64,000 nucleotides of DNA from Acidobacteriota bacterium. GTDB taxonomy: Bacteria > Acidobacteriota > UBA6911 > RPQK01 > JAJDTT01. Below the pieces are notes generated by a model. The model was not told where the DNA came from and searched no databases. It worked only from the letters and a program-made list of their open reading frames with translations. The stretch spans positions 3,680,001-3,744,000 of the forward strand of contig OZ253580.1 in NCBI GenBank assembly GCA_965263035.1. Reading direction: 5' to 3'. A program made the position numbers and the translations under genes. Below, piece after piece: positions 1 to 17,571 of the stretch. The stretch's first letter is position 1. Each line of letters begins with the position of its first letter.

Positions 1-685
1 CGCTCATGCGGCCGGACTGCACTGCCAGGGGCGAAGTCGTGTAGGTGGCGGCTGCCGGGTGCAACGTGGGGTCGCCGACGGCGAGTCGACTGATTTTCCG
101 GGCCGCCGACAGGTATCTTTCCAAGAGCAGCGGAGAGAAAGAGAGGGCGTCGGAGATGTTGTCGAACCCGTACGCCAGGTCGTCGGACGGCAGCAGCGAT
201 GGACCGTCGATCTCCAGCGCCAGCAGGTCCCGGACCGCGTTGGCGTACTGGGTGCGGGTCAAGCGGTAGGACGCCGGACGGCCCGGGTTGGGATCGCTCT
301 CCGCCGCCCGGTCGAGCGCGGACTCCAGCCAAGAGCTGAACGCCGAGCGGTCATCTGCCGTCGGAAGCGGCATTCCCTCAGGCGGCATCACCCTGGTCCT
401 GAGCTGGCGAACCACCTTCTCCCAGACCGGGGCGTCGCCACCGACCCGAGCCAGGTCCAAACTGTCGAACTCGACTCCGGCGGTCTTGAGTTGCCGGTTG
501 TGACAGCTGACGCAGTAGCGATCCAGGAGGGTCCGGTAAGGGGGTAGCGACGGTGGGACAGAGGTGGGGGAATGCAGCCTGAGTCCGGCGCTGGGGCTGC
601 CGGAAACTCCCTTGCCTGCGGCCTGGGACTGAGGGGCCCCGGCCAGGGAGAGTCCCAGACAGGCGATGATGATCCTGGAGTTCAT
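1..685 (-). CDS. DUF1592/DUF1587-type (Planctomycete cytochrome c / PSD) protein, N-terminal part; runs off the left edge
   Basis: Manual translation from ATG 685 (absent from the ORF track): signal peptide, YCVSCH haem motif, WEKVVRQLRTRVMPP, RLTRTQYANAVRDLL, GFDN motifs. Confidence 0.8.
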   Translation of the reverse strand, partial: MNSRIIIACLGLSLAGAPQSQAAGKGVSGSPSAGLRLHSPTSVPPSLPPYRTLLDRYCVSCHNRQLKTAGVEFDSLDLARVGGDAPVWEKVVRQLRTRVMPPEGMPLPTADDRSAFSSWLESALDRAAESDPNPGRPASYRLTRTQYANAVRDLLALEIDGPSLLPSDDLAYGFDNISDALSFSPLLLERYLSAARKISRLAVGDPTLHPAAATYTTSPLAVQSGRMS

Positions 686-766
686 GAATTCGCGACCGGC
701 TGTTTTCAAAGTATTATGGCGACGGGCTGCGACGGTCTGCAAGCACTTCGCAAGGGTCCGACTGGG

Positions 767-2317
767 ATGAAATTCAATCCAAACAGAAGCCGCGGCGCCC
801 GCTTCCACTGGCCGCCCATGGGATCAGGGTTACATTCCCTCGGTCTTTCGGTTCTGGTGTTCCTCGTGCTGTTACCCGATTTTCCAGCGGCGGCCGGGCC
901 ATCCCGGAACCCGGCCGCCGGAGGCCGGGTGTCCCCGTATCGTCTGGTGGAGGCCGCCAAGTCGGGTGACGACGAGGCTTTGCGGTCCCTGCTGGCCGCG
1001 CATGCGGACGTGAACGAGCGTCAGGCCGACGGCGCCACGGCACTGCATTGGGCGGCCCATCGGGACGACCTGAAGAACGCGGTTCTGCTGATCGAGGCCG
1101 GAGCCGATGTTAGGGCCTCCAACGAACTTGAAGTGAGTCCCCTGTGGCTGGCCTGCGTCAACGGGAGCGCCTCCATGGTGAGGGTTCTGCTTGGAGCCGG
1201 GGCCGATCCCAACGCCGCGCCCGCCAGCGGCGAGACCCCTCTCATGCATGCCGCCCGCAGCGGTTCGACGGACGCAGTCAAGCTTTTGCTACTGCATGGC
1301 GCTGACGTGAACGCCAAAACCCCTTTGGAAGACCAGACGGCGCTGATGTGGGCTCTATCGGAGAAGCATGCAGAAGTTTCCCGCACCTTGATCGAACATG
1401 GTGCAGAGGTTTCCGCACGTTCCAAGTTCGGCTTCACGCCTCTGCTGTTTGCCGCTCGCGTCGGCGATCTCGACGGTGCCCGAGCCTTGTTGGCGGCAGG
1501 AGTGGACCCGAATGTGACGGCTTCCGGCGGTGAGAGTGCGCTGGTGGTGGCGACCGTGCGCGGTCACGTGCCGTTTGCGCTCTGGCTGCTGGAACAGGGG
1601 GCGGACCCGAACTCCGACGGCTCGGGATACACGGCTCTGCACTGGGCCGCCGGCGCCTGGGAAACCGAGATGACCGGTCCCAAGGGGATCGTGGCGCATC
1701 CCGGCCACGAGTGGGACGCCATGCGAGGCTTGCAGGAGGGCAAGCTGGAACTGGTTCATGCGCTGTTGGCGCGGGGAGCGGACCCCGACGCCCGGCTCCT
1801 GAAGCACCCTCCCCGGTTCGGCTACACAGCCGACCGGCAGCGGCCGGCGGGGGCGACCCCCTTCCTGCTGGCGGCCAGGGCCGGAGACGCCGGCGTCATG
1901 CAGGTTCTGGTGAAGGCGGGCGCCTCTCCCCGGCTCGCAGCCGACGACATGACGACGACTCTGATGGCGGCAGCCGGGGTGGGCCGAAACTTGACCGAGA
2001 GCCGGGTGACTGAAGAACAGACGCTGCGTGCGGTCCGGCTCGCCCTGGAATTGGGAGCCGACGTGAATGCCGCCAACCGGGACGGGGACACGGCTCTGCA
2101 CGGTGCCGCCCGCATCAAATCCCCCGCTCTGGTGCAACTGGTCGTTGACCACGGCGCCGAGGTGAACGTGAGCAACCGGAAGGGACAGACGCCGCTGTTC
2201 GTGGCCCGGCACTATTTCCATCCCGGCTCTCCGCCGCTCCCGGTCCCAAGCGAGACCGCGGATCTGCTGCGCCGGCTGGGCGCCGAAGAAACGTTTTCTG
2301 AGGGAGTTACGGAATGA
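767..2317 (+). CDS. Secreted ankyrin-repeat protein
   Basis: Many ankyrin repeats (GATALHWAA, GETPLMHAA, GFTPLLFAA, GDTALHGAA); hydrophobic signal near N-terminus; start uncertain (767 or 818). Confidence 0.9.
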   Translation: MKFNPNRSRGARFHWPPMGSGLHSLGLSVLVFLVLLPDFPAAAGPSRNPAAGGRVSPYRLVEAAKSGDDEALRSLLAAHADVNERQADGATALHWAAHRDDLKNAVLLIEAGADVRASNELEVSPLWLACVNGSASMVRVLLGAGADPNAAPASGETPLMHAARSGSTDAVKLLLLHGADVNAKTPLEDQTALMWALSEKHAEVSRTLIEHGAEVSARSKFGFTPLLFAARVGDLDGARALLAAGVDPNVTASGGESALVVATVRGHVPFALWLLEQGADPNSDGSGYTALHWAAGAWETEMTGPKGIVAHPGHEWDAMRGLQEGKLELVHALLARGADPDARLLKHPPRFGYTADRQRPAGATPFLLAARAGDAGVMQVLVKAGASPRLAADDMTTTLMAAAGVGRNLTESRVTEEQTLRAVRLALELGADVNAANRDGDTALHGAARIKSPALVQLVVDHGAEVNVSNRKGQTPLFVARHYFHPGSPPLPVPSETADLLRRLGAEETFSEGVTE

Positions 2318-3110: not shown

Positions 3111-3148
3111 CTCCCGAACGGAGGCGCTTCCGTCCCTCCGTTCGGGAG
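3111..3148. terminator. Strong hairpin downstream of the recombinase gene
   Basis: 14-bp arms CTCCCGAACGGAGG / CCTCCGTTCGGGAG; no clear U-tract. Confidence 0.5.
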
Positions 3149-3180
3149 ACCTCCGCCGCTCCGTCGTATGCACAGGGCCT

Positions 3181-4164
3181 TCAGACGGAGATCCGCTCGA
3201 CGAGGTTGCGGGAGACGCGCCGGCGGCGCCGGTCGTAGACCTGGGTGGTGCTGGGGTGGGCGTGCCCGGCCAGGTACTGGACGTCCTCGAGCGGCACATT
3301 CTGACTCAGCAGGTCCGTGACCACCAGGACGCGGAACGAGTGGGACGAGAGGATCTTCGGCAACCCGGCGGCCGCCATGCGCCGCTTGAGCATCCGCTGG
3401 ACGGCGGGAGGCGACATCGCCCGATCGGTGAGCGGGCTGGAGCGTCGCTCTCCCGCCCGAAAGAGCGGCGAGGACTGGGGCGCATCCGTCAGGCCGGCCC
3501 CTTCGAGGTAGGCCGCGATCCACTCGTCCAAGTCGTGACGCACCGGGATCTCCCGGGACTTGCCCCCTTTTTCCGAAAACTGCAGCGACCGGTGGTTGCC
3601 GTTGTCGCGAAGATCCTGCATCCGCAGCCGGCTGATGGCCCCGACCCGGGCGCCGGTGTAGATGAGCGTCCCGAGGACCGCCCGGTCCCGGAGCCCGAAC
3701 ACACGATCCGTCTTGATGGAGGCGAGCAGCTGACGGGCCTGGGCGACGGTCGCCTCGGGCGTGCGGCCCTCCCCGAAGGGATGGCGCATCCCGCGAACCA
3801 GCCGAAAGGGATTCAATACGGCAGCATGCCGGGCGACGAGCACATCAAAAAAATGCCGCAGTCCGGCCAGGGCCTGGTTCTTGGTGGACGCGCCGCCGGG
3901 GAGCTGTTCGAGGAACCGGCCGGCCAAGCCGGGCGTGACTTGGTGGAGCTCCAGGTCCTGGTCCTCGCACCAGTTGAGGAACCGACTCACGTGGCGGGCG
4001 TAGGCGGTCCGAGTGTGGGGATTCGAGAGGCGCGCGGAGAAGAACTCATCGGCCGCGAAGCAGGCCGCCTTGCCGGCACGCACGAGGACGGCCGGGAAGG
4101 TCCCTTCGAGGTCGGTTTCGGCCCGCGAATCCGAGGTTCTGAGCACCAGTTCCTGATCAGCCAT
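3181..4164 (-). CDS. Tyrosine recombinase (phage-integrase/XerCD superfamily)
   Basis: Catalytic set visible: TGARVG (R), EKGGK (K), HSFR (HxxR), LAGH (H), TQVYDR (Y); N-terminal NPHTRTAY core-binding segment; no obvious IntI-specific insertion. Confidence 0.95.
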   Translation of the reverse strand: MADQELVLRTSDSRAETDLEGTFPAVLVRAGKAACFAADEFFSARLSNPHTRTAYARHVSRFLNWCEDQDLELHQVTPGLAGRFLEQLPGGASTKNQALAGLRHFFDVLVARHAAVLNPFRLVRGMRHPFGEGRTPEATVAQARQLLASIKTDRVFGLRDRAVLGTLIYTGARVGAISRLRMQDLRDNGNHRSLQFSEKGGKSREIPVRHDLDEWIAAYLEGAGLTDAPQSSPLFRAGERRSSPLTDRAMSPPAVQRMLKRRMAAAGLPKILSSHSFRVLVVTDLLSQNVPLEDVQYLAGHAHPSTTQVYDRRRRRVSRNLVERISV

Positions 4165-4168
4165 AATA

Positions 4169-4196
4169 GATAAGTATAATATCCTTTATCGTAATC
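4169..4196. promoter_or_regulatory. Recombinase-proximal palindromic site (A0) overlapping the likely recombinase promoter
   Basis: TATAA-TATCCT-TTATCGTAATC; right arm identical to that of site 10987-11015; TATACT on the minus strand lies 8 nt before the ATG with no RBS. Confidence 0.65.
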
Positions 4197-4273
4197 TACG
4201 GCAGGCCTCTGACTCCCCATTCTCTGCACCGGACGGGCGCTTTTCCTTCCCCTCGCTTCCCCACTTGGTGAAC

Positions 4274-5332
4274 TTATTCTGACGAGATAATCACATCTCC
4301 TGATGTGGAGCGGACGGATGTGAAGGTGGTCTTGCCGTTTTTGAAGGTGACCACTTCTCGCTTGCCGGATGGGTCCTGAGTGACCCAGCGCCCGTGCCGC
4401 TTCCCCTCCACATACGAGCCTTCGTGGACCGCTCCATCCGCACTGCGGACAATCCACTGTCCGTGTCTCTTCCCCTCGACATGGGGGCCTTCGGAGACAG
4501 CTCCATTCTCGTAGCGCGTGATCCACTGACCCTGCCGATTCTTGCCGGCCTCAAGATACCCGGTCTCTTCCGCAGTCTCCTTGCCTCTGCCTCTGTCCCA
4601 GACCCATTTGAGGGTTCCCTGCCCTTGGGCCAGGTCCCCGGCACACTCGCCCGTCCAGGTCACGGTCTGGTCCGGCAGGAGGAAACCATTCCAGACGTAG
4701 CATCCTGGCGGGTTTGACAACTCCATCCAGCACTCAGTGCCGCCCCACTGGCCGGCACAGGAAAGCCGTCCAGTGGTTGTAAATGAGGGCGGGCGGCAAT
4801 CCTCCTCGTTCACCCGCCGGTACTCCTCCAGGAACCAGTCGAGGTCGGAGGTCAGCACTTCGCTGATGCGTTCGGGATCGTGGGCACCGCAACACTCGAC
4901 CGAGCTGATTCTCCACGTGGGCGCCATGTTCTCCAATCCGCTGGCGGGATCGGTGACGAGCTTGTGGTATTCGAGAGAGATAGCATGTGCCACGAGCTCG
5001 GGGGAGACCGCCCTGACATCGATGGAGACCTTCAGGAACGCTCCGTTCGACTCGCTTTTCAAGGATGAGGAGAGACGCTCTGCCCGCAAGCGGCTTTTGG
5101 CGACGTCCAGAACGGGACTTAGTTGGATTGCCTCCTCAGGTTCCGCCGCGCCGGCATCTATCGACCCGCCGCCACCGCCTCCCAGTCCCATGGGGCGGCA
5201 GGCGTTGTACAACTGGAAGCGCTCGAGATCCGAGGCGGATTGTCCGCTCACATCCGTCGCAGAAACCAGCAGCAGCGCCACCAGGCCCGCCGCAACTCCT
5301 CGGAACCCCCGGTTGCCGTTTCTCATTCTCAT
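4274..5332 (-). CDS. Secreted protein with C-terminal MORN-like repeats
   Basis: RBS GGAGGAG, signal peptide, repeats EGPHVEGKRHGQW and EGSYVEGKRHGRW, TWTGECAGDLAQGQG motif. Confidence 0.75.
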   Translation of the reverse strand: MRMRNGNRGFRGVAAGLVALLLVSATDVSGQSASDLERFQLYNACRPMGLGGGGGGSIDAGAAEPEEAIQLSPVLDVAKSRLRAERLSSSLKSESNGAFLKVSIDVRAVSPELVAHAISLEYHKLVTDPASGLENMAPTWRISSVECCGAHDPERISEVLTSDLDWFLEEYRRVNEEDCRPPSFTTTGRLSCAGQWGGTECWMELSNPPGCYVWNGFLLPDQTVTWTGECAGDLAQGQGTLKWVWDRGRGKETAEETGYLEAGKNRQGQWITRYENGAVSEGPHVEGKRHGQWIVRSADGAVHEGSYVEGKRHGRWVTQDPSGKREVVTFKNGKTTFTSVRSTSGDVIISSE

Positions 5333-5491
5333 GGCATCTCCTCCCCTCGCGGAATACGGCAAGCCTACTCCTCGAGAGCAAAGTCCGCCGACGGGGTCGC
5401 GGATCCGGATCTGGAGGATGCCGCCGGCGAGACCAGCGCCGGGTCCGCGGGTCCCCCAGCTGATTCTGCAAAGAGTTTTCTCCTCAAGAAG

Positions 5492-5515
5492 GTCCGATAA
5501 TTGAAATTAACGGAC
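5492..5515. repeat. Type-B palindromic site (B1)
   Basis: GTCCGATAA-TTGAAA-TTAACGGAC; homologues at 10862-10884 and 11735-11758. Confidence 0.8.
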
Positions 5516-5591
5516 ATCCTGGGGGAAAAGGGAGGATTTCGCCGGTTCTATGGTCCAAGAGAAGCGGACCAAACGCCTCTTGGAGGGGTCT

Positions 5592-5620
5592 GGGTCCAAC
5601 AAGATCAACATATTGGACCC
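5592..5620. repeat. Variant type-A 29-bp site (A1)
   Basis: GGGTCCAACAA-GATCAAC-ATATTGGACCC; same length and flanking context as the other A sites. Confidence 0.65.
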
Positions 5621-5835
5621 TAAACTAAGCCCCTGACTCCTCAGTTTCCGGAGGTGACCGCAGGCAGGAGCCGCCCCCTTCTTTCCCAATCCGGGGATCC
5701 CCTCGGGACCAGAAATGAGGCCAAGACTCGACCCGCCGAGTCGGTGACCCGTACTACAATTCGGCCAGAAGGAGCTCCCCAGCATCATTGAATACTGTCG
5801 AAGGCCAAACCTTCTGCCGGGAGGAACCATTCCGG

Positions 5836-8700
5836 ATGTCAGTACACACCCTAAAGATCGAACATCCTCGCCGATTGCGATCCACGACCTCGATGCTAAC
5901 CGTAACTTTGGGCTTGATTCTGCTGGCCGTACCGGAGAAAGCCATGGCTCAGATCGTCCCCGTCTGCGACCGGACCCCGGAAGTACGCGACGGCATCGTG
6001 GGGAAGATTCCGGACGTTTCCGATTGCGGTGATGTGACAGAGGCACATCTGGCTGTGATCAAAGGCTTCCTCGATCTGGCAGGTCCGCACAAGTTTTGGG
6101 GTCTTCCCAGCGGCCTCGAGAGCCCCATTCCAGAGTTGAAATCGGGGGATTTTTCCGGACTATCTTCGTTGGAAGGACTCCGGTTGCAGTACAATGACCT
6201 GACGACTCTACCGCCAGGCCTCTTCGACGGGCTGTCCTCCCTGAAGACGCTCGGGCTGAGCCGCAATCTACTGACGAACCTGCCGGCCGGAATTTTTTCC
6301 GGGCTCACTGGGCTGGAGACACTTACTCTGCCCCTTCATTACAACGACCGTCTCCCCCTGTCCGGTGACCTTTTCTCCGGGCTCACTGGGCTGGATACTC
6401 TCTGGTTGTCCTTGGTCGGGTACAACGACCTGATCCCTCTGCCCGATGAGATCTTCTCCAGACTCACCGCGCTACAATCGCTCACTCTGCACGTCGCGGA
6501 TCGGAGCACTCTGCCCGATGACCTCTTCTCCCAATTGTCCACACTAAAAAGGCTCTATCTGGGTTACAACGACCTGACCACACTGCCGGACGGGGTCTTC
6601 GCCGGGCTGTCCTCGCTGGAGGAGCTCAACCTTTTAGACAACGACCTGGCTACACTGCCGGACGGGATCTTTGCGGGGCTGTCCTCGCTGGAGGAACTCA
6701 ACCTTTTAGACAACGCCCTGACCACACTGCCGGACGGGATCTTTGCCGGGCTGTCCTCGCTGGAGGGGCTCGATCTGAGTGGTAACGACCTGACCACACT
6801 GCCGGACGGGATCTTTGCCGGGCTGTCCTCGCTGGAAACGCTCTCGCTGCATGGCAACGCCCTGACCACACTGCCGGACGGGATCTTTGCCGGGCTGTCC
6901 TCGCTGGAAACGCTCTATCTGCGGGGCAACGACCTGACCACACTGCCGGACGGGATCTTTGCCGGGCTGTCCTCGCTGGAGAGGCTCTCGCTGTCTCGAA
7001 ACCGGCGCCCACTGACCACGATGATTTCGCTGGAATTCGCCGGGGAAGGCCGGTTCAGAGCCCGGTCGCACACGGGAGCGCTCTTCGATATCGTGCTTCC
7101 GATCACCATTGTAAACGGCGTCATCGACGGAGGTTCAAGCCAAATCACCATTCCCAGGGGCAGCGTGGAAAGCGCCACATTCACAGTCTCCCGGGATCCT
7201 GGCACGGCCTCTGCCGTCTTCGTGGACATCGGCGAGTTGCCGGGGCTGCCGAACTCCATTTCTACGGACCTCACTCTGGTCAAGTCCCCCAACCTGCCCC
7301 TGACGGTTCTGGAGGCGCCAAGTCTGCACTTCGCCCATTTCGCCAATGGGGAATCCATCACCTCCGAGTTGGTGTTGGTGAACGTGGGCGCCGAACCGAT
7401 CCGTCCGGTCGTCCACTTTCTGGATCGCGGGGGGAATCTCCTGTCCGGCGGATGGCTGGTGGAGATGAGGGAAGGCCTGGAGGTTCAAGAGGACGGCTCG
7501 GTGAGTGTTCAGATGGGCGTGGAACCCTTGGGAGAGATCACGATCTCGACCCACTCTCGAAGGGTGATGGTGTCCGGATCGGTGCGCGTGGAGTCCGACG
7601 GTCCCATCGGCGGGGTCCTCCGCTATGTCGATCCGGGCATCGGCGTTGCCGGGGTGGGAGCGAGTCCACGCGTCCGGGACGCCATCTTCCCGGCTCGAAA
7701 CCAGGCGGGCGGGATCCGCTCAGCGGTCGCGGTCCGCAACCGAGGAGTGGAGTGGATGAGGGTGCAGTGCCAATTGATGCAAGCGGGCGCCGTGCTGGAA
7801 GAGACGAAGATTTCTCTGAAAGGCGACGGGCAGGAGGCCCGGTTTCTCGACGAGTTGTTCCCCGAAACCGACACCTCCGACTTCCTTGGATCGGTGCGCT
7901 GTACTGCCCCGCGCGGCAAGCTTTTTACGGGAGTGGCGGTGGAGATGGATACCGGGAATGGAATCTTCACGACCCTGCCGATGATTCCGGTGGAACCTGC
8001 GGCAGCCGGCGGCGAGGACGGGACGCTGGACTTCGCGCATTTCGGAAACGGGTCGTCCGTTCGATCCGAGTTGGTGTTGGTGAACGTGGGTGCCGAACCG
8101 ATGCGACCAGCCGTCTACTTTTACGATCAGGACGGCTCCGTCATTGCTGCAGAATCGGTAGTGGACGTGGTGGAAGATCTGGAGGTCCGAGAGGACGGGG
8201 CTTTGAGTGTTCGGACGGAAATGGCGGTGCTGAGCGAGCTTACGATCTCGACCCACGGGCGAGGGGAGTTGATGACGGGATCGGTGCGCGTGGTCTCCGA
8301 CGGTCCCATGGGCGGGGTCCTGCGCTTTGACGTCCCAAGCGTGGGGGTGGCCGGGATAGGCGCCTGCCCGCCCGTCACGGCCGCGATGTTCCTGGCCCGG
8401 CGGCAGGAGAACGGGATCAACACCGGAGCTGCGGTCCGAAACCTCGAGTCGGAAGCGATGACGTTGACCTGCGCACTGATGCAGAATGGCCGCATGCTGG
8501 CTGAGACGGAGATCGATCTGAAGGCCGGCGGCCAAGTTGCCCGTTTCATCGACGAGCTCTTCAAGGAGGCCAATACCTCCGACTTCATCGGCTCGGTCCA
8601 CTGCACCGCGCCCCCGGGCGGATCCTTCACGGGAGTGGCTCTGGAGATGGATGCTGACAACCGGATCTTCACCACGCTGCCCATGGTCCCGGTTCCTTGA
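5836..8700 (+). CDS. Secreted leucine-rich-repeat protein with a duplicated C-terminal domain
   Basis: Signal peptide, VCDRTPEVRD..C cap, 24-aa LRRs (NDLTTLPDGIFAGLSSLExLxL), two ~220-aa tandem domains starting LHFAHFANG and LDFAHFGNG. Confidence 0.9.
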   Translation: MSVHTLKIEHPRRLRSTTSMLTVTLGLILLAVPEKAMAQIVPVCDRTPEVRDGIVGKIPDVSDCGDVTEAHLAVIKGFLDLAGPHKFWGLPSGLESPIPELKSGDFSGLSSLEGLRLQYNDLTTLPPGLFDGLSSLKTLGLSRNLLTNLPAGIFSGLTGLETLTLPLHYNDRLPLSGDLFSGLTGLDTLWLSLVGYNDLIPLPDEIFSRLTALQSLTLHVADRSTLPDDLFSQLSTLKRLYLGYNDLTTLPDGVFAGLSSLEELNLLDNDLATLPDGIFAGLSSLEELNLLDNALTTLPDGIFAGLSSLEGLDLSGNDLTTLPDGIFAGLSSLETLSLHGNALTTLPDGIFAGLSSLETLYLRGNDLTTLPDGIFAGLSSLERLSLSRNRRPLTTMISLEFAGEGRFRARSHTGALFDIVLPITIVNGVIDGGSSQITIPRGSVESATFTVSRDPGTASAVFVDIGELPGLPNSISTDLTLVKSPNLPLTVLEAPSLHFAHFANGESITSELVLVNVGAEPIRPVVHFLDRGGNLLSGGWLVEMREGLEVQEDGSVSVQMGVEPLGEITISTHSRRVMVSGSVRVESDGPIGGVLRYVDPGIGVAGVGASPRVRDAIFPARNQAGGIRSAVAVRNRGVEWMRVQCQLMQAGAVLEETKISLKGDGQEARFLDELFPETDTSDFLGSVRCTAPRGKLFTGVAVEMDTGNGIFTTLPMIPVEPAAAGGEDGTLDFAHFGNGSSVRSELVLVNVGAEPMRPAVYFYDQDGSVIAAESVVDVVEDLEVREDGALSVRTEMAVLSELTISTHGRGELMTGSVRVVSDGPMGGVLRFDVPSVGVAGIGACPPVTAAMFLARRQENGINTGAAVRNLESEAMTLTCALMQNGRMLAETEIDLKAGGQVARFIDELFKEANTSDFIGSVHCTAPPGGSFTGVALEMDADNRIFTTLPMVPVP
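6568..6990 (+). repeat. Six near-identical 72-bp LRR-coding tandem repeats
   Basis: Units start at 6568, 6640, 6712, 6784, 6856 and 6928 with AACG(A/C)CCTG..ACACTGCCGGACGGG. Confidence 0.9.
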
Positions 8701-8914
8701 TCACCTGTCAGAGATAGCTTGGGAAACGAGTCCTGCTTCGGAACCTACTCCGGTGACCGGAAGCGGCGATCTCCACAAAAACAGGCAGGAACTAATCTTG
8801 AATTCTCTATAGGAGCAGGGTCTCTGCCCTTACTCTTGGGGGGCCAGGATCAGCCTCGAACTGCCCGGAAACAAGGGTCAGAAGAAGAGGGTCAGGCCCC
8901 TCCAGGAGGTCTCA

Positions 8915-8943
8915 GAGTACGATAATTGCACTTTATCGTACCC
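8915..8943. repeat. Type-A 29-bp site (A2)
   Basis: GAGTACGATAA-TTGCACT-TTATCGTACCC. Confidence 0.9.
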
Positions 8944-9079
8944 TAATCGACCCTCTTGCTACGCGTCTCGGGGCTGGATGCTTGGGTGATCGACTCACCC
9001 TTAGATGCCGTAGCGTTGCCGCTCCGGCTACTTGTAACCGACTACTACCGATCGCATGAACGCATGATATTGTAAGTAG

Positions 9080-10516
9080 TTGGAGGACATTGGATCCGTG
9101 TTTGGTGTGGAATTTCGGCGTTGGGTCTTGATTCTATCTGCTACGGCCTTGTGTGTTGCCGTCGTTTCATGCGAAGGCGAGACGGTATCGAAGGGAGACA
9201 AGAAGCAGTTCCTTAAAGAAGTCGACCTGCTCGAAGATCCTTCAGAGAAGAGGGCCGAACTCGAAGCGTACATCACTCGAAATCCAGACGGACCTCAACT
9301 GTCATTCGCATATGGCCTGTTGCTGGACCTACTGAGAACAGAGCACCCTCAGGACGCTCTCAGATTGGCAGACAGAATACTGACCGAGCAGAAGACAGAC
9401 ACCGAACTTCACTACTACGCCTACCTCACAAAGTTCACGGTGTATGAAGATCTCGGTGACCGGGACGCCGCCGCAGCATTGGCCCGCCGAGTCCTCACCT
9501 CTGAAAGCGATCCGAACCTCCTCCGTCTCGCCAGGCCTCATGATCCCGAGAAGGCGGAAGAGTACGAGGCTCGGATTCAAAGCTCGCATATCAATTCTCA
9601 AGAGATCGAAGCCATCGGCTGGGAGTCGCGGTTGTACGACTTAAGCCCCAGTGACTTGAAAAAAATGTCAGATGAAGACAGAGCCCGCCGTTTGACTCAG
9701 CAGATCCGGCGCTACGAAGCACTTCCGGAGAGCGACCGCGCCCTCACCAACAAATTTCCTGCTCTTTACTTCGAGATCGCTCGCCTATTGGCCCGTTTGG
9801 GAGACGGTGAATCGGCCCTATCTTATCTTGAGCGAGTCGAGGAAGTGCCGGGATCAGACTGGCATCTCGCCAGCAGCCGTGGCGAAGTCTACGTAAAAAT
9901 GGGAAAATCCTTACTAGCCATAGAAGCCCTTACTGAGGCACTCGCTTTGACTATGGCTCCGTGGCTTTGGCAACGGATTCAGGAGACATGCGAGTCCGTG
10001 GGGGAATCTCCGGAGAAATGGCTGGCGCGAAGCCGACAAATTCGCGCCGAACGACGCTGGGTTTTCCCCAATCTGAACCTTGAGACGCCTGACACCGAGA
10101 AATGGAATCTGCATGACTTCCTGGGTAGTGCTGGTAGTGTCGTCGTTTTCTTTTCGCCCGGCTGAGGTCCATGCATTGCGGAGTTGCCGCATTTGCAACG
10201 TTTCCATGATCGCTACGCGGACTCGGGACTCCGGGTAGTACTCCTCGAATACGGCGGTTGGACACATCAGCAGATCGAGTCTTGGCTCGACAAGCAGAGG
10301 GGTAGTCTTCCCGTCCTCCTCGGGGCTGATCGAGAACGGCTTGAAAAGAAATACAATATTCGAGTCACTCCGACCAAGTTCATCCTCGACGAAAACGGGC
10401 GAGTTCTGTTCCGTCAAATAGGATATGGCCCAGGTGTCGAGAAGACTCTGGAAGCGCAGATTCGAGAAGCGCTAGGCATGAACCCTTTTCTGGCCGAGAC
10501 AGTGAGCGCACCTTGA
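9080..10516 (+). CDS. TPR plus TlpA/thioredoxin-like protein, probable selenoprotein (TGA 10163-10165 read as Sec)
   Basis: ORFs 9080-10165 and 10184-10516 are in frame; read-through gives VVVFFSPG-U-GPC-IAELPHL (UxxC) and later YNIRVTPTKFILD (cis-Pro loop); helical TPR-like N-terminal part; lipobox-like AVVSC. Confidence 0.75.
10172..10197 (+). promoter_or_regulatory. Candidate bacterial SECIS hairpin
   Basis: TGCGG-AGTTG-CCGCA stem-loop begins 11 nt after the TGA and can be extended by TGCA/TGCA pairing. Confidence 0.55.
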
Positions 10517-10861
10517 GCAAGCCCGTAGTTCAATTCGGGCCACGCCTCCTCAATCTTCTTTAACTCCCGTCGGAACACAATGCCAATGTTCCCTGGGCCA
10601 GCGCGGGTCCTGGATCCAAGCGGCCAAGAAGCTTTTCGACGATGCACAGACCAGTGGCAGCCATCTACGTTTTCCGATTCGCCCCACGACTGGAACCGAC
10701 CGGGACCGCGTGATCTACGACGCGGTTCAGCAGGTGTGCAGACTCGCCAACAGGCTTCGGACGGCGTTCCCAGACGCATAGCGATTAGCTCAGCGAGTGA
10801 ACGATATTGTGGGCCTTGCGGCAGCTGGAAGCAGTAAATCGTTGTGATCGGGTGGGCCACT

Positions 10862-10884
10862 GCCGTTAACTGAAATTAACAGAC
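10862..10884. repeat. Type-B palindromic site (B2)
   Basis: GCCGTTAA-CTGAAA-TTAACAGAC. Confidence 0.8.
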
Positions 10885-10986
10885 GTTCTCTGGAAAAAGG
10901 GAGGATCACGGGGGGTGCGAATCAGCCCCAAGCCTCCCGGAAACACGGACCAGGAAAAGACCACCAAGCCCCTCCAAGAGGGTTCA

Positions 10987-11015
10987 GGATACGATAATTG
11001 CACTTTATCGTAATC
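10987..11015. repeat. Type-A 29-bp site (A3)
   Basis: GGATACGATAA-TTGCACT-TTATCGTAATC. Confidence 0.9.
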
Positions 11016-11187
11016 TAATCCACGGCCCTGACTCCCCTATTCTCCGCCGGACGAGGCGCTCGATCTCCTCTTTTTTTAACCCGGTGAGCCCATCCGGGCA
11101 CCAAAATCACATTCCTTGATGCCGTACCTCCTGCCCTCTGTGAGGATGGTCTACGGGGGGCAGGGGACCAAGGTAGAAGGAGGTGCC

Positions 11188-11694
11188 GTGATGACAACAA
11201 CGATGAAATCGAGCCGGACTCAAGTTTTTGTTTTGCTCCTGGCAGGACTACTCGCACAACCGGTGACGGCGGGGGTGATTCCAGGGCGCTGGGAGAAGGT
11301 CTCGACCTTGGAAATGACGTCGCCCATCACGGCGGAACTGAAAAACGGGGATCGGATCCGGGGCCAGTTCCGACGGCTGTCGCCATCAGCCCTGGAACTC
11401 CGGAGCCGCGCCGGTTGGGCAGTGATCCCAAAATCGGACATCCGGACGATTACCACTCCCTCAAAGGATGGTCTGGGCAACGGAGCCGGCATTGGCGCAG
11501 CGATTGGGGCTGGACTTGCACTCGGGGCCTTCGGCTTAGCAGTTCGTACTCGAGGTGGGTTGGATGGTGATACTTGGCCCTTTTTGATGATTGGAGGCAT
11601 CGGAGCCAGCATCGGAGCCGGCATTGGCGCAGCTGCCGATGCTGCCATGAAGGGCGAGCCCATCGTGGTCTACAAAGCGCCCGGAACTCCTTAG
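11188..11694 (+). CDS. Secreted protein with a C-terminal glycine-zipper-like hydrophobic region (paralog 1)
   Basis: RBS AAGGAGG, signal peptide, VIPGRWEKV domain, GAGIGAAIGAG and GASIGAGIGA segments. Confidence 0.75.
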   Translation: MMTTTMKSSRTQVFVLLLAGLLAQPVTAGVIPGRWEKVSTLEMTSPITAELKNGDRIRGQFRRLSPSALELRSRAGWAVIPKSDIRTITTPSKDGLGNGAGIGAAIGAGLALGAFGLAVRTRGGLDGDTWPFLMIGGIGASIGAGIGAAADAAMKGEPIVVYKAPGTP

Positions 11695-11734
11695 AGTCCC
11701 AAGCACAGAGATCCGAAAGGGAGGCGACGATAGG

Positions 11735-11758
11735 GTCCGTTAACTGAAATTAACGGCC
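11735..11758. repeat. Type-B palindromic site (B3)
   Basis: GTCCGTTAA-CTGAAA-TTAACGGCC. Confidence 0.8.
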
Positions 11759-11972
11759 TTCTCCCTTCTGCCCCACCCGATCCAGGATTCCAGACGCCGT
11801 GAATTCCCGGTCTCGGTGAGCCCATTTCGACGAAAAAATCACATTTGTTGATGTGTACCTCCTGCCCTTGGTGGGGACGACCCACGGGGGGCAGAAGAGC
11901 AATGGTTCGACGGTGACCGTGAGCGTCTCCGGCGACCAGCAGTGTTTCTTCAGGAAAGAAGGAGGTGCGAAG

Positions 11973-12566
11973 GTGATAACCCCAAAGATGAAATCCTGCC
12001 GAACCCAAATCCTCTCCTTGATCCTGGGGGGACTGATCGCACAGCCGGCGCAAGCGGAGGTGATCCCCGGACGGTGGGAGAAGGTCTCCGCCTTGGAAAT
12101 GGCGTCGCCCATCGTGGTGGAACTGAATGCCGGGGATCGAATCAAGGGCCAGTTCCGAGGCCTGTCGGCATCAGATCTGGATCTCCTGAGCCCCTCTGGT
12201 TGGGCAGTGATACCGAAATCGGACATCCGAACGATTACATCTCCTTCGAAGGACGGCCTAGGCGACGGAGCCAAGATTGGAGCCGGGATAGGGGCCGGGA
12301 TTGTAGTCGGAGCCGTTGGCATAGCTGCCATGGCCCAAAATAAGGGGGATGCTGCCAGTGCGCCAATGCTAATGTTGATACTTGGAGGCGGTGCAGCAGG
12401 CATAGGAGCGGGACTGGGTATGATTGCCGACGCCGTAATAAAGACCGAGGACATCGTGTTGTACATAGCGCCCGGAACTCCTCGCCGGTCCAAGCACAAA
12501 GATTCGGAGTGGTGGCCCCCAGATCCGCCGGCGGCCGAGACGGAGGAACCCCAAAATTCACAATGA
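11973..12566 (+). CDS. Secreted glycine-zipper-like protein (paralog 2)
   Basis: RBS AAGGAGG plus GTG; shares VIPGRWEKVS and GWAVIPKSDIRTIT with 11188-11694. Confidence 0.75.
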   Translation: MITPKMKSCRTQILSLILGGLIAQPAQAEVIPGRWEKVSALEMASPIVVELNAGDRIKGQFRGLSASDLDLLSPSGWAVIPKSDIRTITSPSKDGLGDGAKIGAGIGAGIVVGAVGIAAMAQNKGDAASAPMLMLILGGGAAGIGAGLGMIADAVIKTEDIVLYIAPGTPRRSKHKDSEWWPPDPPAAETEEPQNSQ

Positions 12567-12718
12567 CTGGGACGGGCGTTCTCCAACTGGTAGGAATCTA
12601 ATCCTAGATTCCCTATAGCAGCGGGTTTCCTCCCCTTCTCTCGGAGGGCGTGGGTTAGCCTCAAGCCACCTGGAAACACGGTCCGGAAAAAAGGACCAGA
12701 CTCTTCCAAGAGGACTCA

Positions 12719-12747
12719 GGGTACGATAATTGCACTTTATCGTACCC
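12719..12747. repeat. Type-A 29-bp site (A4), perfect 11-7-11 palindrome
   Basis: GGGTACGATAA-TTGCACT-TTATCGTACCC. Confidence 0.9.
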
Positions 12748-12939
12748 GTGCCGGGCGCCGAATCCGCACAGCCAACGAGAAGTGTACGCCCCTCGGAGAG
12801 AAGGGGAAGGAGGGCCCATCACCGCACCCTCTCCCCCTCACCAAAGTCTGATTTGACCGTCCCTTTTCTCGGGTAGTTCTCGCTACTGCTCAGGATGGGA
12901 CTGCCTAAACTAGCCCACTGGGGTATATAATGTCGTTCG

Positions 12940-13277
12940 ATGCAAACAGTGGCCGAGACCCCGACATTCTCCCGTCAGGCCGAAAAGCTGTTCAGTGAGG
13001 ATGAGAAAATGAGCTAATCAACTTCCTCGCGGAGAATCCGCTGGCAGCTGATGAAATTCCGAGTACGGGCGGTGTCCGAAAGCTACGCTTCGCAGCCTCC
13101 GGCCGGGGCAAGCGAGGCGGGGCTCGAGTGATCTACTACTACTTGGACGAAGCGAGTCCGGTTTACGCGCTGCTTGCCTATGCGAAGAGTTCGAAAACTG
13201 ACATGACACCGAAAGAAAGGCGCACGGTTTCAAAACTCGTAGTCGCACTCAAGGCGGCCCGAAAGGGGATGAAATGA
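12940..13277 (+). pseudogene. RelE/HigB-family toxin, frameshifted
   Basis: MQTVAETPTFSRQAEKLFSEDEK, one base missing in the A-run near 13006-13009, then ELINFLAENP..GGVRKLRFAASGRGKRGGARVIYYY; ATGA overlap with the antitoxin; TATAAT at 12926 suggests a leaderless transcript. Confidence 0.8.
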
Positions 13278-13564
13278 GCACATTTGGAGACGACCTGATC
13301 CAGTCACTCAAAGAAGCCCTCGCTCACGCAAAGGGAGATGGCTACGCTATCCTCCATGCTCCCGTAACTCCACGCGAGGTTCGGGAACAGGCGAAGCTCA
13401 CACAGGCGCAGATGGCGCCATTGATGGGCATGAGCCTTTCCGGCTACCGGAAATGGGAACAGGGAACGCGCCAGATTAGCGGCCCGGCTGCAACTCTTCT
13501 GCGTGTGATCGCAAAGGAACCAGAGGCCGTCAAGCGCGCATTGCTGTCTTCGGGGCAAGTATAA
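13274..13564 (+). CDS. HigA-like XRE/HTH antitoxin
   Basis: FGDDLIQSLKEAL...LTQAQMAPLMGMSLSGYRKWEQG..GPAATLLRVI. Confidence 0.85.
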   Translation: MSTFGDDLIQSLKEALAHAKGDGYAILHAPVTPREVREQAKLTQAQMAPLMGMSLSGYRKWEQGTRQISGPAATLLRVIAKEPEAVKRALLSSGQV

Positions 13565-13939
13565 GCATAGTAGTAGAGAGGACCCTCCTCTTGCAGCGCA
13601 TGCTTAGAAAGTGCCGGAGTCACGCAATAGGAAAGACACAATGGCCTTTGTATTGCACGGGTCTTTCGCGCCCGGGATCCGCACCAAGTCGGCAAGCCGA
13701 TCAAATCACCCTCCCGGTCGGCTGTTGAGAACCTGGGAATCCTCTAGGAGGCTGTCCGAGAATTCGACATTGAGTGACCTTCACCCGTAGCCATGCTCAG
13801 GGGCAATGGCCCAAGGCTCCGAAGACCCTCGAAGCCTGGCCTCCGGAGCCGAAGGAATCGATGGGCTACTCTATTTACGACTCGGAAAGAGGCTACAGCG
13901 GCCGATTTTTGACTTCATCCGCCCTTATCCGCCCCTTTT

Positions 13940-15460
13940 TTACGCCCAGGCCGCTCGCTTCCCGAACTCCGGACACAACACCTCTCCCCGCAGAGCCGCA
14001 AGCATGATCTTTTTGAGATTGTGCGCCACGCAGACCAAGGAGAACTCCCCGGCCACTTTCTCCTTGCCCCGCAGCCCGAATCCCCGAAATCCCGAGTTCT
14101 TGATCTGCCCGAATACCGGCTCGACGATGGTCTTGCGACGCGCGTAGAGCGCTCGGCTCTCCGGTTTCGACATCCGCTCGTTCATCGCCCGTCGCAACGG
14201 CTCCTTCCCGTCGCTCGTGATCGTGCGCGCCGCCCCTGACTTCGACCGGCAGCACCGACGATAGTAGGCACAGGATCGGCACTCCTCGATGTCCCCCTGA
14301 TACACCCGCTGTCCCGTGCCGCGGGGGGTCTTCGACCTCAGCAGTTGGCCGCCGGGACAATGAAACCCGTCCCGCTCCCCGTCGTAACGAAAGTCCGCTT
14401 TCACCAGGCGACGCTCACTCTCCTCCAGCTCTCCCTTCCCCCGCTTCTCGCCCCGGTCCGTCGCCACGTACGCTTCCACCTGACGATCGGACACCTCCTG
14501 CAGGTTCTTTCCCGAATAGTAGCCGTGGTCCAGGCTCAGCTTCTCCGGCAACCGACCGCTCGTCTCCTCCATCTCATCCAGCGCCCGAGCCACCTCCTGG
14601 GCATCGTTCGCCTGTTGGCTCACGTGCTGACCCACGATCACCTGCGATGTCTCCTCCACGCTGATCTGCGCGTTGTACGCGTACTCGAACCCCCCTTTTT
14701 GCTTCATGATCCGCGCCTCGGGGTCCGCAAAGCTGAGCTGCTTCTTGTCCTCGATCTCCCGACCCGGTCGAAGCTCCGCCTCCCGCGCTTCCAGCGACTG
14801 TTTCGTCTCCCGGATCTTCTGCAACCGCTGCTGCTTGTCGCGCAGTTCCTCCGGCAACTCATACCCGGTCCGCTCCGCGTAGGCTCGATCCTCTTGCTCG
14901 TCGCAGCGATCGGCCTGTCGGGTCAAGGCCTCGATCTCCTCGCACAACTCCTTCTCCTTCTCCTTCTCCTTCAGTCGTCCGTAACTCATCGCCTTGTGCT
15001 TCGAGCTGTTCGCCTTGAACTTGGACCCGTCCAGGCTCACGTGGCCCAAACTCACCAGCCCCAGCCCCAGCCCCAGCGCCAACTGCACCGTCTGCTTGAA
15101 ACAGGACCGGAAGAACTCCCCGCGGTCCTTCCGGAAATCGCTCAACACCCGGAAGTTCGGGCAGTTCCTCCCCGCCAGGTACATGAAGCCGAGATCTTCC
15201 CGGCAGCGCTGCTCGATCTGTCGCGAGCTGAACACGCCGTGACTGCAGGCGTAGATCAGGATCGAAACGATCTGGCGCGGCGCGTAGGCCCGCTGACCCC
15301 GGTGGCTGTACCGGGCCTTCACTTCCGTCGTGTCCAGCTGCCGAAACAGATCCCGGTAGAGGAAACACTCGTGATCCTCCGGCAACAAGTCGAATACGTT
15401 AGCTGGAAACAGCTGACTCTGGTAGTAATCTTTCGGGTAGGCTTTGAAGCGAGGGGGCAT
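13940..15460 (-). CDS. IS1182-family DDE transposase
   Basis: GVFSSRQIE, PNFRVLSDFR, LDGSKFKANSS, YAYNAQI, LDHGY, RRKTIVEPVFGQIK motifs. Confidence 0.92.
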   Translation of the reverse strand: MPPRFKAYPKDYYQSQLFPANVFDLLPEDHECFLYRDLFRQLDTTEVKARYSHRGQRAYAPRQIVSILIYACSHGVFSSRQIEQRCREDLGFMYLAGRNCPNFRVLSDFRKDRGEFFRSCFKQTVQLALGLGLGLVSLGHVSLDGSKFKANSSKHKAMSYGRLKEKEKEKELCEEIEALTRQADRCDEQEDRAYAERTGYELPEELRDKQQRLQKIRETKQSLEAREAELRPGREIEDKKQLSFADPEARIMKQKGGFEYAYNAQISVEETSQVIVGQHVSQQANDAQEVARALDEMEETSGRLPEKLSLDHGYYSGKNLQEVSDRQVEAYVATDRGEKRGKGELEESERRLVKADFRYDGERDGFHCPGGQLLRSKTPRGTGQRVYQGDIEECRSCAYYRRCCRSKSGAARTITSDGKEPLRRAMNERMSKPESRALYARRKTIVEPVFGQIKNSGFRGFGLRGKEKVAGEFSLVCVAHNLKKIMLAALRGEVLCPEFGKRAAWA

Positions 15461-15848
15461 CCGACACTCTCCTGATGATCTGTTCCCCTTATTTTAGGGA
15501 GTATCCATGTTGCAAGTGGTGGGTGCTAATCGGTGTTTCCATCCCGTGTCGTTAGTACGTGATCTGTCCGGTCCAAAGGGCACAGGGTTAGGAGGAGCGT
15601 TCTTCCGCCAGAGGTGAGGCGGAGATCGAGCTGGATCCAGCGGGCGCCGTGCAGGGGGCGATGAGTGGACGGATCAACTGGATCGAGGGGCCTGAGATCG
15701 TCGACGTCAGTCCTCCGGGAGGTCCGGATACGCCGTGAAGAGCTTTCATGGCCGTAAGCAAGCTTCCGGCCAGACCTGACCGGAAGTTCGACAGACGGCC
15801 ATCAGGGGGTCCACACGCTCCCTTTCCTCACGGGGTCTCTCCGTGGCC

Positions 15849-16796
15849 TCAGAAGGTCGCTCGGGGCGCTACGGGCAACCAGGTGCGGTCCTGCCGGACG
15901 AGGGTGTTGGCCAGGACGATGAGCTTGCGCATGACGGCGACGAGGGCCACCTTGCCGGGCTTGCCGCGCTCTCTCAGCCTCCGGTACACCTCGGCCAAGT
16001 CGGGGTTCCAGCGCAGGGCGGCCACCGCCGGCATGTACAGGAGCCGTCGCGCCCGCGCCCGTCCGCCCCGGATGAAGGCCCGGCCCTGCCAAGTCCCGGA
16101 CTCGCGGGGAACGGCCGCCAGCCCGGCCAGACTGGCGGCGGCCTTGCCGCTGAGGGCGCCCAGCTCGGGCATCTCGGCCAGCAGACCGGCGGCGGTGGTG
16201 GCCGCGATCCCGGGAATGGAGGTGAGGATCTCCAACTTGCGGGCCCGCGCCTCGTCGGCCGCAATCAGCTGCTGCATTTTGCGGTCGATGGCGCGCAGGT
16301 GGCGCTCGAACAAGTTGATCCGGGTCTGGTTCTGCTGTTTGAGCAAGGGTTCGCGGAGCTGTTGGCGGCGGTTGAGCAGGGCCGTGCGCTGGCGGATCAG
16401 CGCGTCCCGGGCCGTCTGCAGATCCTGGAGCCGGCGTTGCGTTTTGGACGGGGCCGGGGTCCGGCGCGGATCCAGGCTGGCGGCCAGTTGGGCCAGTTTC
16501 CGAGCGTCTACGGCGTCGGTCTTGGCGCGGCTCCCGGTCGCCCGGGCGAAACATCGGGCCTGCCAGGGGTTCACCTTGGCCAACGGCAGCTTCGCTTTGG
16601 ACAGCGCCTCCTCGAGGTCCCGGTGGTAGGGGCCGGTGGCCTCGTAGGCGACGCACTCGACCGGAGTTCCGATCCAATCGATCAGCGCCCGGAAGCCGGC
16701 CGGGTCATTGTCGAACTGGGCGGAATGGCCGTCGGCCAGCCGGTGCGCGTCCAGGTGAGCTTTCGAGATGTCGATGCCTACGGTATGCTGTTTCAT
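15849..16796 (-). CDS. IS110 DEDD recombinase
   Basis: VGIDISK, EATGPY, KTDAVDA, SIPGI, RESG (catalytic Ser region), GKPGKVALVAVMRKL. Confidence 0.95.
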   Translation of the reverse strand: MKQHTVGIDISKAHLDAHRLADGHSAQFDNDPAGFRALIDWIGTPVECVAYEATGPYHRDLEEALSKAKLPLAKVNPWQARCFARATGSRAKTDAVDARKLAQLAASLDPRRTPAPSKTQRRLQDLQTARDALIRQRTALLNRRQQLREPLLKQQNQTRINLFERHLRAIDRKMQQLIAADEARARKLEILTSIPGIAATTAAGLLAEMPELGALSGKAAASLAGLAAVPRESGTWQGRAFIRGGRARARRLLYMPAVAALRWNPDLAEVYRRLRERGKPGKVALVAVMRKLIVLANTLVRQDRTWLPVAPRATF

Positions 16797-16965: not shown

Positions 16966-17486
16966 TTAAACAGACAAGCGTCGGTGACAGTCCTGTTCTC
17001 GGACAGGCTCCTAGGACAGCAAGAGCCGTTTGGGCAAGGACTTCGTCACAATGACACTCCGTCACTCCGCGGCGCTCGGAATAGGCATCCTGAACGAATT
17101 CAAGCGCAGCTCTCTGGGCCCGGTCTGTACATGTGGCTCACCTATCGACCTTCGCCTTGAAGAAACCAGTGCAGCTCCGCTGGCGCAACCTCTCTCGGCA
17201 GTTTGGGGTTAATCTGGGCCAAGAGAGCAGAAAACGCGCTGTGGATAATTTCCTTGCGAAGTGTCTCCGGGAGCCTAAGGAGATCAAGGAAGCTTGACCG
17301 GAGCAACACTACGGAATCGCCCGAGGTGTGTTGCTGCTGGTTCCCTTAAAGCCCACCGTGCTACCCAAACCCTTTACGCTTCTTACGTAGTCGGATCTCG
17401 ATCCGGTGTCCTCTTGATCGTTCACGCTAACCACAGGCGAGGCGGATTTTCGCGCAGATACGGCCGGACTCTCTTGCCAGGAGAAG

Positions 17487-17571
17487 TGCGAAAGGGGGGA
17501 CTCGAACCCCCACGGGGAGTAACCCCACCAGATCCTAAATCTGGCGCGTCTGCCAATTCCGCCACTTTCGC
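17487..17571 (-). tRNA. tRNA-Leu(TAG)
   Basis: GCGAAAGTGGCGGAATTGGCAGACGCG-CCAGAT-TTAGGA-TCTGG, long variable arm, GGTTCGAGTCC; CCA not encoded. Confidence 0.95.

Follow-up and report, generated by a model that had tools for sequence, protein, structure and literature searches.

A Xer-like tyrosine recombinase with dif-like cores and variable gene arrays in an Acidobacteriota genome

We analysed a stretch of 64,000 nucleotides (the window; G000:C1:3680001-3744000) from the genome of an Acidobacteriota bacterium (G000), which is a single contig of 6.198 Mb with 62% G+C. Near its left end the window holds an intact gene for a Xer-like simple tyrosine recombinase (327 aa, positions 3181..4164, minus strand), and 7 bp from the start codon lies a dif-like inverted-repeat site, here called a core. 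Seven more cores, three of type A, three of type B and one variant, follow to the right in the same orientation, and genes of different kinds lie between them.

The recombinase matches Pfam Phage_integrase (PF00589) with 81 bits against a cut-off of 27.1, and a SAM-like N-domain with 32.5 bits. It falls far under the cut-offs of the NCBIfam models for XerD (114.5 bits, cut-off 329.6), XerC (111.5 bits, cut-off 335.15) and the integron integrase (TIGR02249; 56.9 bits, cut-off 265), and reaches 39.8 bits with the XerS model (cut-off 267). The nearest solved structures are XerD (1a0p) and archaeal XerA/XerC-like chains. Residues 49-312 align to 1a0p with no large insertion of the IntI type; the R, K, H-x-x-R, H and Y residues, which we take to be catalytic from general knowledge of XerD, match up, and the motifs GARV, KGGKSR, HSFR and GHAHPSTTQVY align with the XerD motifs. 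Judged from its sequence, the enzyme is a non-IntI, Xer-like tyrosine recombinase. A preliminary description of this DNA had likewise placed a palindromic site at the start codon of an intact, non-IntI recombinase.

The cores draw on one arm family, CG[A/T]TAA...TTA[T/A]CG, and their centres define four classes: P (TATACT), B (CTGAAA), A (TTGCACT) and X (GATCAAC). Arms are common to the A, B and P cores and to hybrids. Hybrid cores, CCGATAA...TTAACGG and CCGTTAA...TTATCGG, occur, so the A/T position of the arm is interchangeable. With the outer bases included, A cores have the format 11-7-11 and B cores 11-6-11. The A pattern TACGATAA-TTGCACT-TTATCGTA matches the window exactly three times (8918, 10990 and 12722); the three cores are identical over 23 bp, and shuffled sequence is expected to give 0.04 matches. 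The best B copies read ACGTCCGTTAA-CTGAAA-TTAACGGACGT. A fourth match to the B pattern, at 7099, carries 3 mismatches and is no more than chance would give (0.94 expected), and the remaining 50 kb of the window contain no further A or B copies.

All eight cores lie on the plus strand. The proximal core (P2 type, 4167..4197) keeps the A right flank and the A right arm, TTATCGTAATC; its recombinase-side arm and centre differ. Next come a B-type core with a hybrid left arm (5491..5516, CCGATAA-TTGAAA-TTAACGG, pattern match at 5494) and the X-type palindrome GGTCCAACAAGATCAACATATTGGACC (5593..5619). The first A core (8915..8943) is preceded by a conserved left flank of ~100 bp (8838-8914). The B core at 10860..10887 (CCGTTAA-CTGAAA-TTAACAG, pattern match at 10863) opens a B-linker-A module, in which 105 bp separate it from the A core at 10987..11015. 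The last two are a B core at 11734..11761 (CCGTTAA-CTGAAA-TTAACGG, match at 11737), 42 bp past the stop codon of the first glycine-zipper gene, and an A core at 12719..12747. The sites proposed in the preliminary description were thus largely recovered: the A sites at 8915, 10987 and 12719 are exact, the B sites given near 5492, 10862 and 11735 were found at 5494, 10863 and 11737, the variant at 4169 is real, and the uniform orientation, the 11-nt arms, the asymmetric 6-7-bp centres and the absence of copies from the rest of the window all hold. The variant put at 5592 is a different palindrome, the X core, with flanks of the kind that surround A.

A shared leader motif, GGTGAGCCCAT...AAAATCACAT, stands ~90 nt to the right of A, P and B cores, in front of unrelated genes; it occurs at 4266-4305, 11082-11121 and 11814-11853 of the window and in other arrays, could form a stem and has no match in Rfam. 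An Rfam scan of positions 1-18500 placed no family on any module and returned just two tRNAs and one chance miRNA match. In a consensus RNA fold of 13 A/X modules the palindrome alone folds (-9 kcal/mol), and a scan for promoter and terminator consensus sequences found nothing at the cores, with counts no higher than in shuffled sequence.

The gene next to the proximal core (4274..5362, minus strand, 362 aa) is co-directional with the recombinase and carries a MORN-type repeat that is visible by eye, in the C-terminus only; it has no Pfam hit at E ≤ 0.1 and no NCBIfam hit, and an 80% nucleotide copy lies beside a recombinase fragment in a related genome (G007). The cargo genes to the right are on the plus strand. 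A leucine-rich repeat (LRR) protein of 970 aa (5788..8700; Pfam LRR_8, 1.3e-58) has a duplicated C-terminal domain, encoded by the internal repeat 7324-7991 / 8026-8693. It is followed by a gene for a tetratricopeptide repeat (TPR) protein with a thioredoxin fold (9080..10516, read through an in-frame TGA at 10163-10165). G007 has an 86% copy of this gene, bordered by a P-type core on one side and a B-linker-A module on the other. Two glycine-zipper membrane proteins (11116..11694 and 11853..12566), the first recognised from its translation and without a family match, are paralogues with 73% nucleotide identity. The last unit is a toxin-antitoxin (TA) pair (12940..13564) of a RelE-like toxin (12940-13277; Pfam RelE, 1.3e-07) and a helix-turn-helix antitoxin (13274-13564; HTH_3, 2.3e-08). 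The toxin gene has a 1-nt deletion, a frameshift, relative to the intact copy in G007. Cassettes carry 100-350 bp of their own upstream sequence with the shared leader motif, and the consensus scan gave no promoter at the platform, that is, the recombinase gene with its core. Three parts of the preliminary reading need correction here: its six units are not all unrelated, the two glycine-zipper genes being paralogues; its MORN unit shows the repeat but is on the minus strand, co-directional with the recombinase, and has no Pfam hit; and the suggestion that a distal TA pair stabilises the array is not supported: no core follows the pair to the right, and the toxin gene carries the frameshift.

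The in-frame TGA of the TPR-thioredoxin gene occupies the first Cys position of the thioredoxin-fold redox motif, read G-U-G-P-C. The codon and the frame downstream of it are retained in the G007 copy (94% nucleotide identity), a hairpin follows the codon, and selB is found above cut-off elsewhere in the genome. By these features the protein is likely a selenoprotein.

The genome holds at least five such arrays, that of the window included, and 10 copies or fragments of the recombinase. Six are intact and retain the catalytic residues, four belonging to the window subfamily (84-86% amino acid identity to the window copy) and two to a second subfamily (61-63%); one further copy is split, and at least four matches are fragments. 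In the 84-86% copies DNA homology extends from the stop codon to 30-50 bp beyond the start codon and therefore covers the gene and the proximal core together. In every intact subfamily-1 copy 7 bp separate the proximal core from the start codon, and the arrays lead away from this core. We scanned the genome with five patterns (A, B, P, P2 and X), allowing up to 3-4 mismatches, and obtained 52 cores, as against 0 in a control in which the genome was read backwards. Non-proximal cores are concentrated near the recombinase: 34 of 46 have a recombinase gene or fragment no more than 25 kb away, against an expectation of 4.1 (8-fold enrichment), and neighbouring cores agree in orientation in 35 of 37 pairs. 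For comparison, an unrelated 167-bp miniature inverted-repeat transposable element (MITE) has 23 of 183 copies near a recombinase and 33 of 62 neighbours co-oriented, and we rejected a MITE or other dispersed repeat as an account of the cores. The sites are thus tied to the recombinase rather than scattered, as had been supposed, but they are not confined to one locus.

The largest array (6.146-6.194 Mb) opens with a recombinase remnant and a proximal core and has 14 cores in one orientation, with plus-strand genes between them; another, at 6.02-6.04 Mb, has 6 cores. In both, a broken recombinase stands at the start and the direction is that of the window array. In at least 7 cases a co-oriented gene ends, at its stop codon, 36-49 bp before a B core, a distance that depends, like all gene calls in the other arrays and islands, on a crude, loose caller applied to low-GC cassettes. 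Six A cores in the genome are perfect over 23 bp despite flank identities of 75-98%. In a tree of 17 recombinase copies, three of the four subfamily-1 copies of G000 group together (91/91) and two copies from one record (L031 and L032) form a pair (98/95), with a backbone that is not resolved; this branching suggests that platforms have been copied or converted within genomes.

Comparison of related copies showed that homology repeatedly ends at or inside cores, in agreement with the earlier proposal that the sites are unit boundaries. Two B-linker-A modules, at 2.108 Mb and 6.157 Mb, show 98% identity across 156 bp, a stretch that begins 4 bp before B and ends 3 bp after A; outside it the flanks on both sides are unrelated. 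In other pairs the similarity is confined to one flank of a core, the left in some and the right in others. A 1473-bp block (99.3% identity) begins in the outer part of the recombinase-side arm in the proximal core of a subfamily-2 copy and recurs 0.8 Mb away without the recombinase. The similarity of the first glycine-zipper cassette to its copy in a congener (G005), 89%, begins in the right arm of A (11008) and ends in the left arm of B (11741), and homology between the window and the G007 TPR-thioredoxin cassette stops after the A centre, within the A core. Nine public sequencing runs contain the stretch or part of it, and four of them (X5, X9, X1 and X2) were compared, all as contigs; a contig of X1 carries 10985-11752 preceded by 288 letters unlike the window. 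Small shares also occur in two runs labelled sponge metagenome, from which no habitat is claimed.

A 99% duplicated block that starts at a proximal core contains a tRNA-Leu(TAA) gene (G000:C1:2914932-2915018 and 2101850-2101936), and there a tRNA gene appears to travel as cargo.

The array lies in a hypervariable island. Its left flank (window 1-2330) and right flank (from ~17470) are 84-92% identical in seven congeners (G001-G007), and the DNA between them is different in all seven: gene content varies, as the preliminary description required of a cassette system. The island is empty in G006, with a 4-bp gap, and holds 1.6 kb of other sequence in G004. In G001 and G007 it contains a recombinase with its proximal core, then other genes and B cores, and in G002, G003 and G005 recombinase remnants and other cargo. 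Some window cassettes were found elsewhere in these genomes: a different region of G007 holds the TA pair and the TPR-thioredoxin gene, and one of G005 holds glycine-zipper gene 1 together with LRR genes. B cores (up to 2 mismatches) are present in all 8 other genomes of the genus, with 1-12 copies each and 23 in G000, and were not found in 22 genomes outside it. Recombinase matches number 0 to 4 per relative and 10 in G000. The relatives are Acidobacteriota metagenome-assembled genomes and kin of one another, so these per-genome counts are not independent; the tallies of shared segments, cores and recombinase copies take in one unpublished genome (G016) as a single entry. G007 also has a site that shares the left arm and centre of A but not its right arm. 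A search of metagenome contigs for exact A and extended B cores returned 0 stretches each.

The conserved left flank, outside the system, encodes an ankyrin-repeat protein of 581 aa (572..2317, plus strand; Pfam Ank_2, 2.5e-69) with 84-86% nucleotide identity in G001-G007 and a match in G008 as well. The right border of the island is a tRNA-Leu(TAG) gene (17486..17571, minus strand), and this junction is conserved in G001-G007. Between the array and the tRNA lie two insertion sequences (13744..16796, minus strand), the first with a DDE transposase (13940-15460) and the second with an IS110-family transposase (15849-16796); the segment 13744-15501, which covers the DDE element, is multi-copy in G000 at 90-99% identity. 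The 167-bp MITE occurs in the window at 2767-2933, 20633-20799 and 51703-51869. It has terminal inverted repeats, folds as a hairpin over its whole length (-104 kcal/mol) and is present in 183 copies in G000 (95 plus, 88 minus), with 92-97% copies in both genera of the family. A palindrome, TTGTCAATGGCCATTGACA, stands ~30-60 bp before tRNA-Leu in G001, G002, G004, G005 and G007 (L117-L120) and is not in the window. Further to the right, 26627-27436 holds three tandem 270-bp repeats with 68-83% identity and related copies near 29249, probably inside a repeat-protein gene.

The recombinase belongs to a large family, with 2871 proteins at E ≤ 1e-20 among 8000 candidates scored, all under generic names. 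Relatives with 50-85% identity come from Acidobacteriota, Latescibacterota, Verrucomicrobiota, Planctomycetota, Gemmatimonadota and others. Upstream of the match, by at most 140 bp, 19 of 78 related loci in several phyla have the palindrome ACGATAA-N6-TTATCGT (usual form ACGATAA-AGTATG-TTATCGT; one mismatch per arm allowed). The loci without such a match are the six closest relatives, in which the recombinase-side arm is altered, the Planctomycetota loci, and loci with only a gene fragment. Near-identical copies (98-99.7%) in different genomes or loci share just ~1.05-1.36 kb, namely the gene, the core and a short tail, and in two 99.7% identical copies from one record (L034 and L036) divergence begins inside the core centre. 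Among plasmids, 134 records hold relatives at 141 places in total, as a rule one per plasmid, and identity is below 60% throughout (37-56% among the matches listed). A Sphingobium plasmid has the gene between a replication-initiator gene and a VapBC pair, and the Sphingobium and Aquisphaera plasmid relatives each have their own 11-6-11 or 12-6-12 palindrome upstream. The family looks like a single-recombinase multimer-resolution module, with gene and site as one unit.

Tyrosine recombinases bind as a dimer to the two arms of a site, exchange strands at the edges of a 6-8-bp centre and need like centres, and recombination between direct repeats deletes the intervening DNA as a circle. We propose excision and re-insertion between like cores because the arms are common and the centres define four classes. 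The platform would consist of a Xer-type recombinase gene, a dif-like core directly upstream and an adjoining array in which mostly co-oriented cargo genes (LRR, TPR-thioredoxin, glycine-zipper) are each followed by a core, the cores forming direct repeats. Dimers of this recombinase, the presumed acting enzyme, would bind both arms of a core; two cores of like centre, P, B, A or X, would enter synapsis, and strand exchange would take place at the borders of the 6-7-bp centre. Genes enclosed by two direct repeats, one or several, would leave as a circle with one core, and in the reverse reaction a circle would enter at any core of its class. Over time the contents of arrays would diverge between close relatives. 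The outcome would be nested, interleaved units that pair B with B, A with A and P with P, rather than capture at the proximal site alone. The ~100-bp left flank of A and X cores may, speculatively, act as accessory sequences that favour deletion. On this proposal like cores recombine and thereby excise and insert gene cassettes, in a manner that is integron-like in its working although the system is not an integron; we regard it as finely balanced and incline, slightly, to accept it.

A number of observations weigh against this proposal. The contigs of the four runs contain neither excised circles nor empty sites, for which the preliminary description had looked to reads, and no deletion there joins like cores; among the reported joints none connects two like cores of the window array. 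The joints that do occur (for example 2931>8914, 2929>13744 and 4130>12752) fit other copies of the MITE, insertion sequences or recombinase. Contigs break at repeated modules, and low depth at 4902-7169 and 8871-10571 in X1 and X2 does not amount to absence. The shared TPR-thioredoxin segment starts at 9036 and the shared TA segment at 12835, neither at a core, and the G005 copy of the first glycine-zipper cassette has degenerate half-sites only. An intact A core (up to 3 mismatches) was found only in G000 (9 copies) among the genomes searched. The centres of P, A and B differ (6, 7 and 6 bp), so capture at the proximal core would require strand exchange between heterologous centres. The preliminary claim that the recombinase captures or shuffles cassettes divides: variable content, linkage to the recombinase and the breakpoints agree with it, but attI-like capture beside the recombinase gene is not implied by the sequence. 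A mechanism in which like cores recombine is more defensible than such capture.

Other points against recombination between like cores are at the same time what one would expect if only the proximal core were a true site, belonging to a plasmid-type resolution module that landed several times, and A and B were lineage-specific intergenic elements spread with families of secreted repeat proteins. As 3' or 5' untranslated or operator sequences, these elements would resemble the cores by descent or chance, and the enzyme would not rearrange arrays. The cores are embedded in longer conserved modules, ~100 bp on the left and ~35 bp on the right plus the leader motif, which hints at another or an additional role. 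The fixed 36-49 bp between stop codons and B cores, which can also be read in favour of recombining cores, would suit such elements. Paralogous LRR genes are abundant in the arrays (6 of 9 proteins scanned in the largest), and plain segmental duplication is present between array segments (88% over 897 bp). X cores alter both arms symmetrically, which is also compatible with a hairpin. G004 and G005 hold 8 and 6 B cores with one recombinase fragment each and no intact enzyme, and on plasmids the family resembles a one-site resolution system. Intergenic elements fit poorly, however, with arms that equal those of the cognate core and form hybrids, with the 8-fold enrichment beside recombinase copies, with an orientation that is uniform relative to the recombinase and with homology that breaks at cores independently on either side. 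The modules flank unrelated genes, have no consensus RNA fold past the palindrome, and show no terminator or promoter signal at their cores. We consider this explanation unlikely.

The arrays could also be relics, left inactive in an ordinary tRNA-linked genomic island or in integrated-plasmid debris that grew by accretion, with the broken copies and insertion sequences as signs of decay. The island abuts the 3' end of tRNA-Leu, with an empty site there in G006; it encloses a MITE as well as two insertion sequences, the toxin gene carries a frameshift, and the genome has at least four recombinase fragments and a split copy. Against decay stand the six intact copies with their catalytic residues, the six A cores that are perfect over 23 bp within flanks of only 75-98% identity, and blocks of 98-99% identity that end at cores and therefore reflect recent events. 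A repeat of a tRNA fragment was not seen, and among 10 clusters checked only that of the window abuts a tRNA; two others contain tRNA-Leu(TAA) and one has tRNA-Ser 3.6 kb away. With one cluster of ten at a tRNA, the idea of a tRNA-targeting integrase is weakened, and a relic island seems to us improbable. Action of host XerC and XerD on the cores, as proposed for Acinetobacter plasmid dif (pdif) modules, would make the Xer-like recombinase a passenger. The host has a XerD above cut-off (0.948 Mb) and a XerC-like gene (4.479 Mb), and a single canonical dif candidate, ACGTCGCATAA-TGAATA-TTATGTAAACT, at 5,875,250, near which the cumulative GC skew has its maximum (5.84 Mb); 8 of the 11 bases of the B arm ACGTCCGTTAA agree with this candidate's left arm, ACGTCGCATAA. 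Yet the cores are near-perfect palindromes in which no arm resembles the right arm TTATGTAAACT, their orientation is direct rather than alternating, and the proximal core travels with the recombinase gene across phyla. We give this possibility very little credence.

The arrays resemble integrons in that a tyrosine recombinase has a site at the 5' end of its gene and a divergent array leading away from it, in which mostly co-oriented, unrelated genes are each followed by a site in direct orientation; variable content and a TA pair in the array are further likenesses. The attC sites of integrons are long imperfect palindromes with outer R''/R' boxes, recombined as folded single strands. The cores described here are instead near-perfect palindromes of 28-29 bp, of double-strand type, with 6-7-bp centres, and the enzyme lacks the IntI insertion. 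Further differences from integrons are the several site classes with different centres, the many platforms per genome and the upstream sequence that cassettes bring with them. No copy in the genome exceeds the TIGR02249 cut-off (best 78.7 bits), and a classical integron, which fails on both of its defining features, IntI and attC, was rejected. In Acinetobacter pdif modules, as in the arrays, genes are bounded by dif-like 11-6-11 cores and modules recur in differing contexts. The orientation of pdif cores alternates. The pdif modules are reported to depend on host XerC/XerD, with one XerC and one distinct XerD arm per core; the A, B and P types described here form palindromes without the right-arm type of the host dif candidate, are directly repeated and are linked to a dedicated recombinase.

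Closer parallels are found among systems with one recombinase. In Cre/loxP and ResD/rfsF a gene lies beside an inverted-repeat core with an asymmetric centre, and direct repeats would give deletion, as here; the one-sided conserved flank of the cores resembles the accessory sequences of cer and psi. Such plasmid and phage multimer-resolution systems have a single site per replicon and no cargo arrays, unlike the module described here, which has multiplied on the chromosome with sites that bracket genes. XerS/difSL and XerH/difH each combine one Xer-type enzyme with a site immediately beside its gene, gene and site forming a single module, according to the review PMC5357621. These are single-copy systems for chromosome-dimer resolution, in contrast to the 10 copies or fragments, the more than 40 extra cores and the separate host dif candidate, with XerD and a XerC-like gene, of G000. 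Dimer resolution would also call for a place near the terminus, and the window, at 3.68 Mb, is far from both the skew maximum and the dif candidate.

A literature search of limited scope found no report of a Xer-like recombinase with cassette arrays, and integrons are, to our knowledge, the only well-established case of single-gene cassettes being built into arrays by a dedicated recombinase. The system described here may comprise site-specific-recombination cassette arrays built on a Xer-like enzyme, a route of gene collection and swapping that is possibly undescribed. In its widest form it would be a second, independently evolved integron-type gene capture, derived from a plasmid-style Xer-like module with double-strand dif-like cores. 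The centres P, B, A and X would then serve as compatibility labels, platforms would multiply within the genome, the cargo would be mainly repeat-domain or surface proteins, and the 1-kb unit of gene plus site, near-identical copies of which occur in different genomes, would itself be a minimal mobile element. This joint reading is tentative, and we lean towards doubting it. If the system works, cassette arrays can arise from plasmid resolution modules, and it would explain a class of hypervariable islands that is invisible to tools of the IntegronFinder type. It would also offer a simple, lox-like natural recombination toolkit with several orthogonal centres, and it would point to a route by which this lineage diversifies its LRR, TPR and ankyrin-type proteins.

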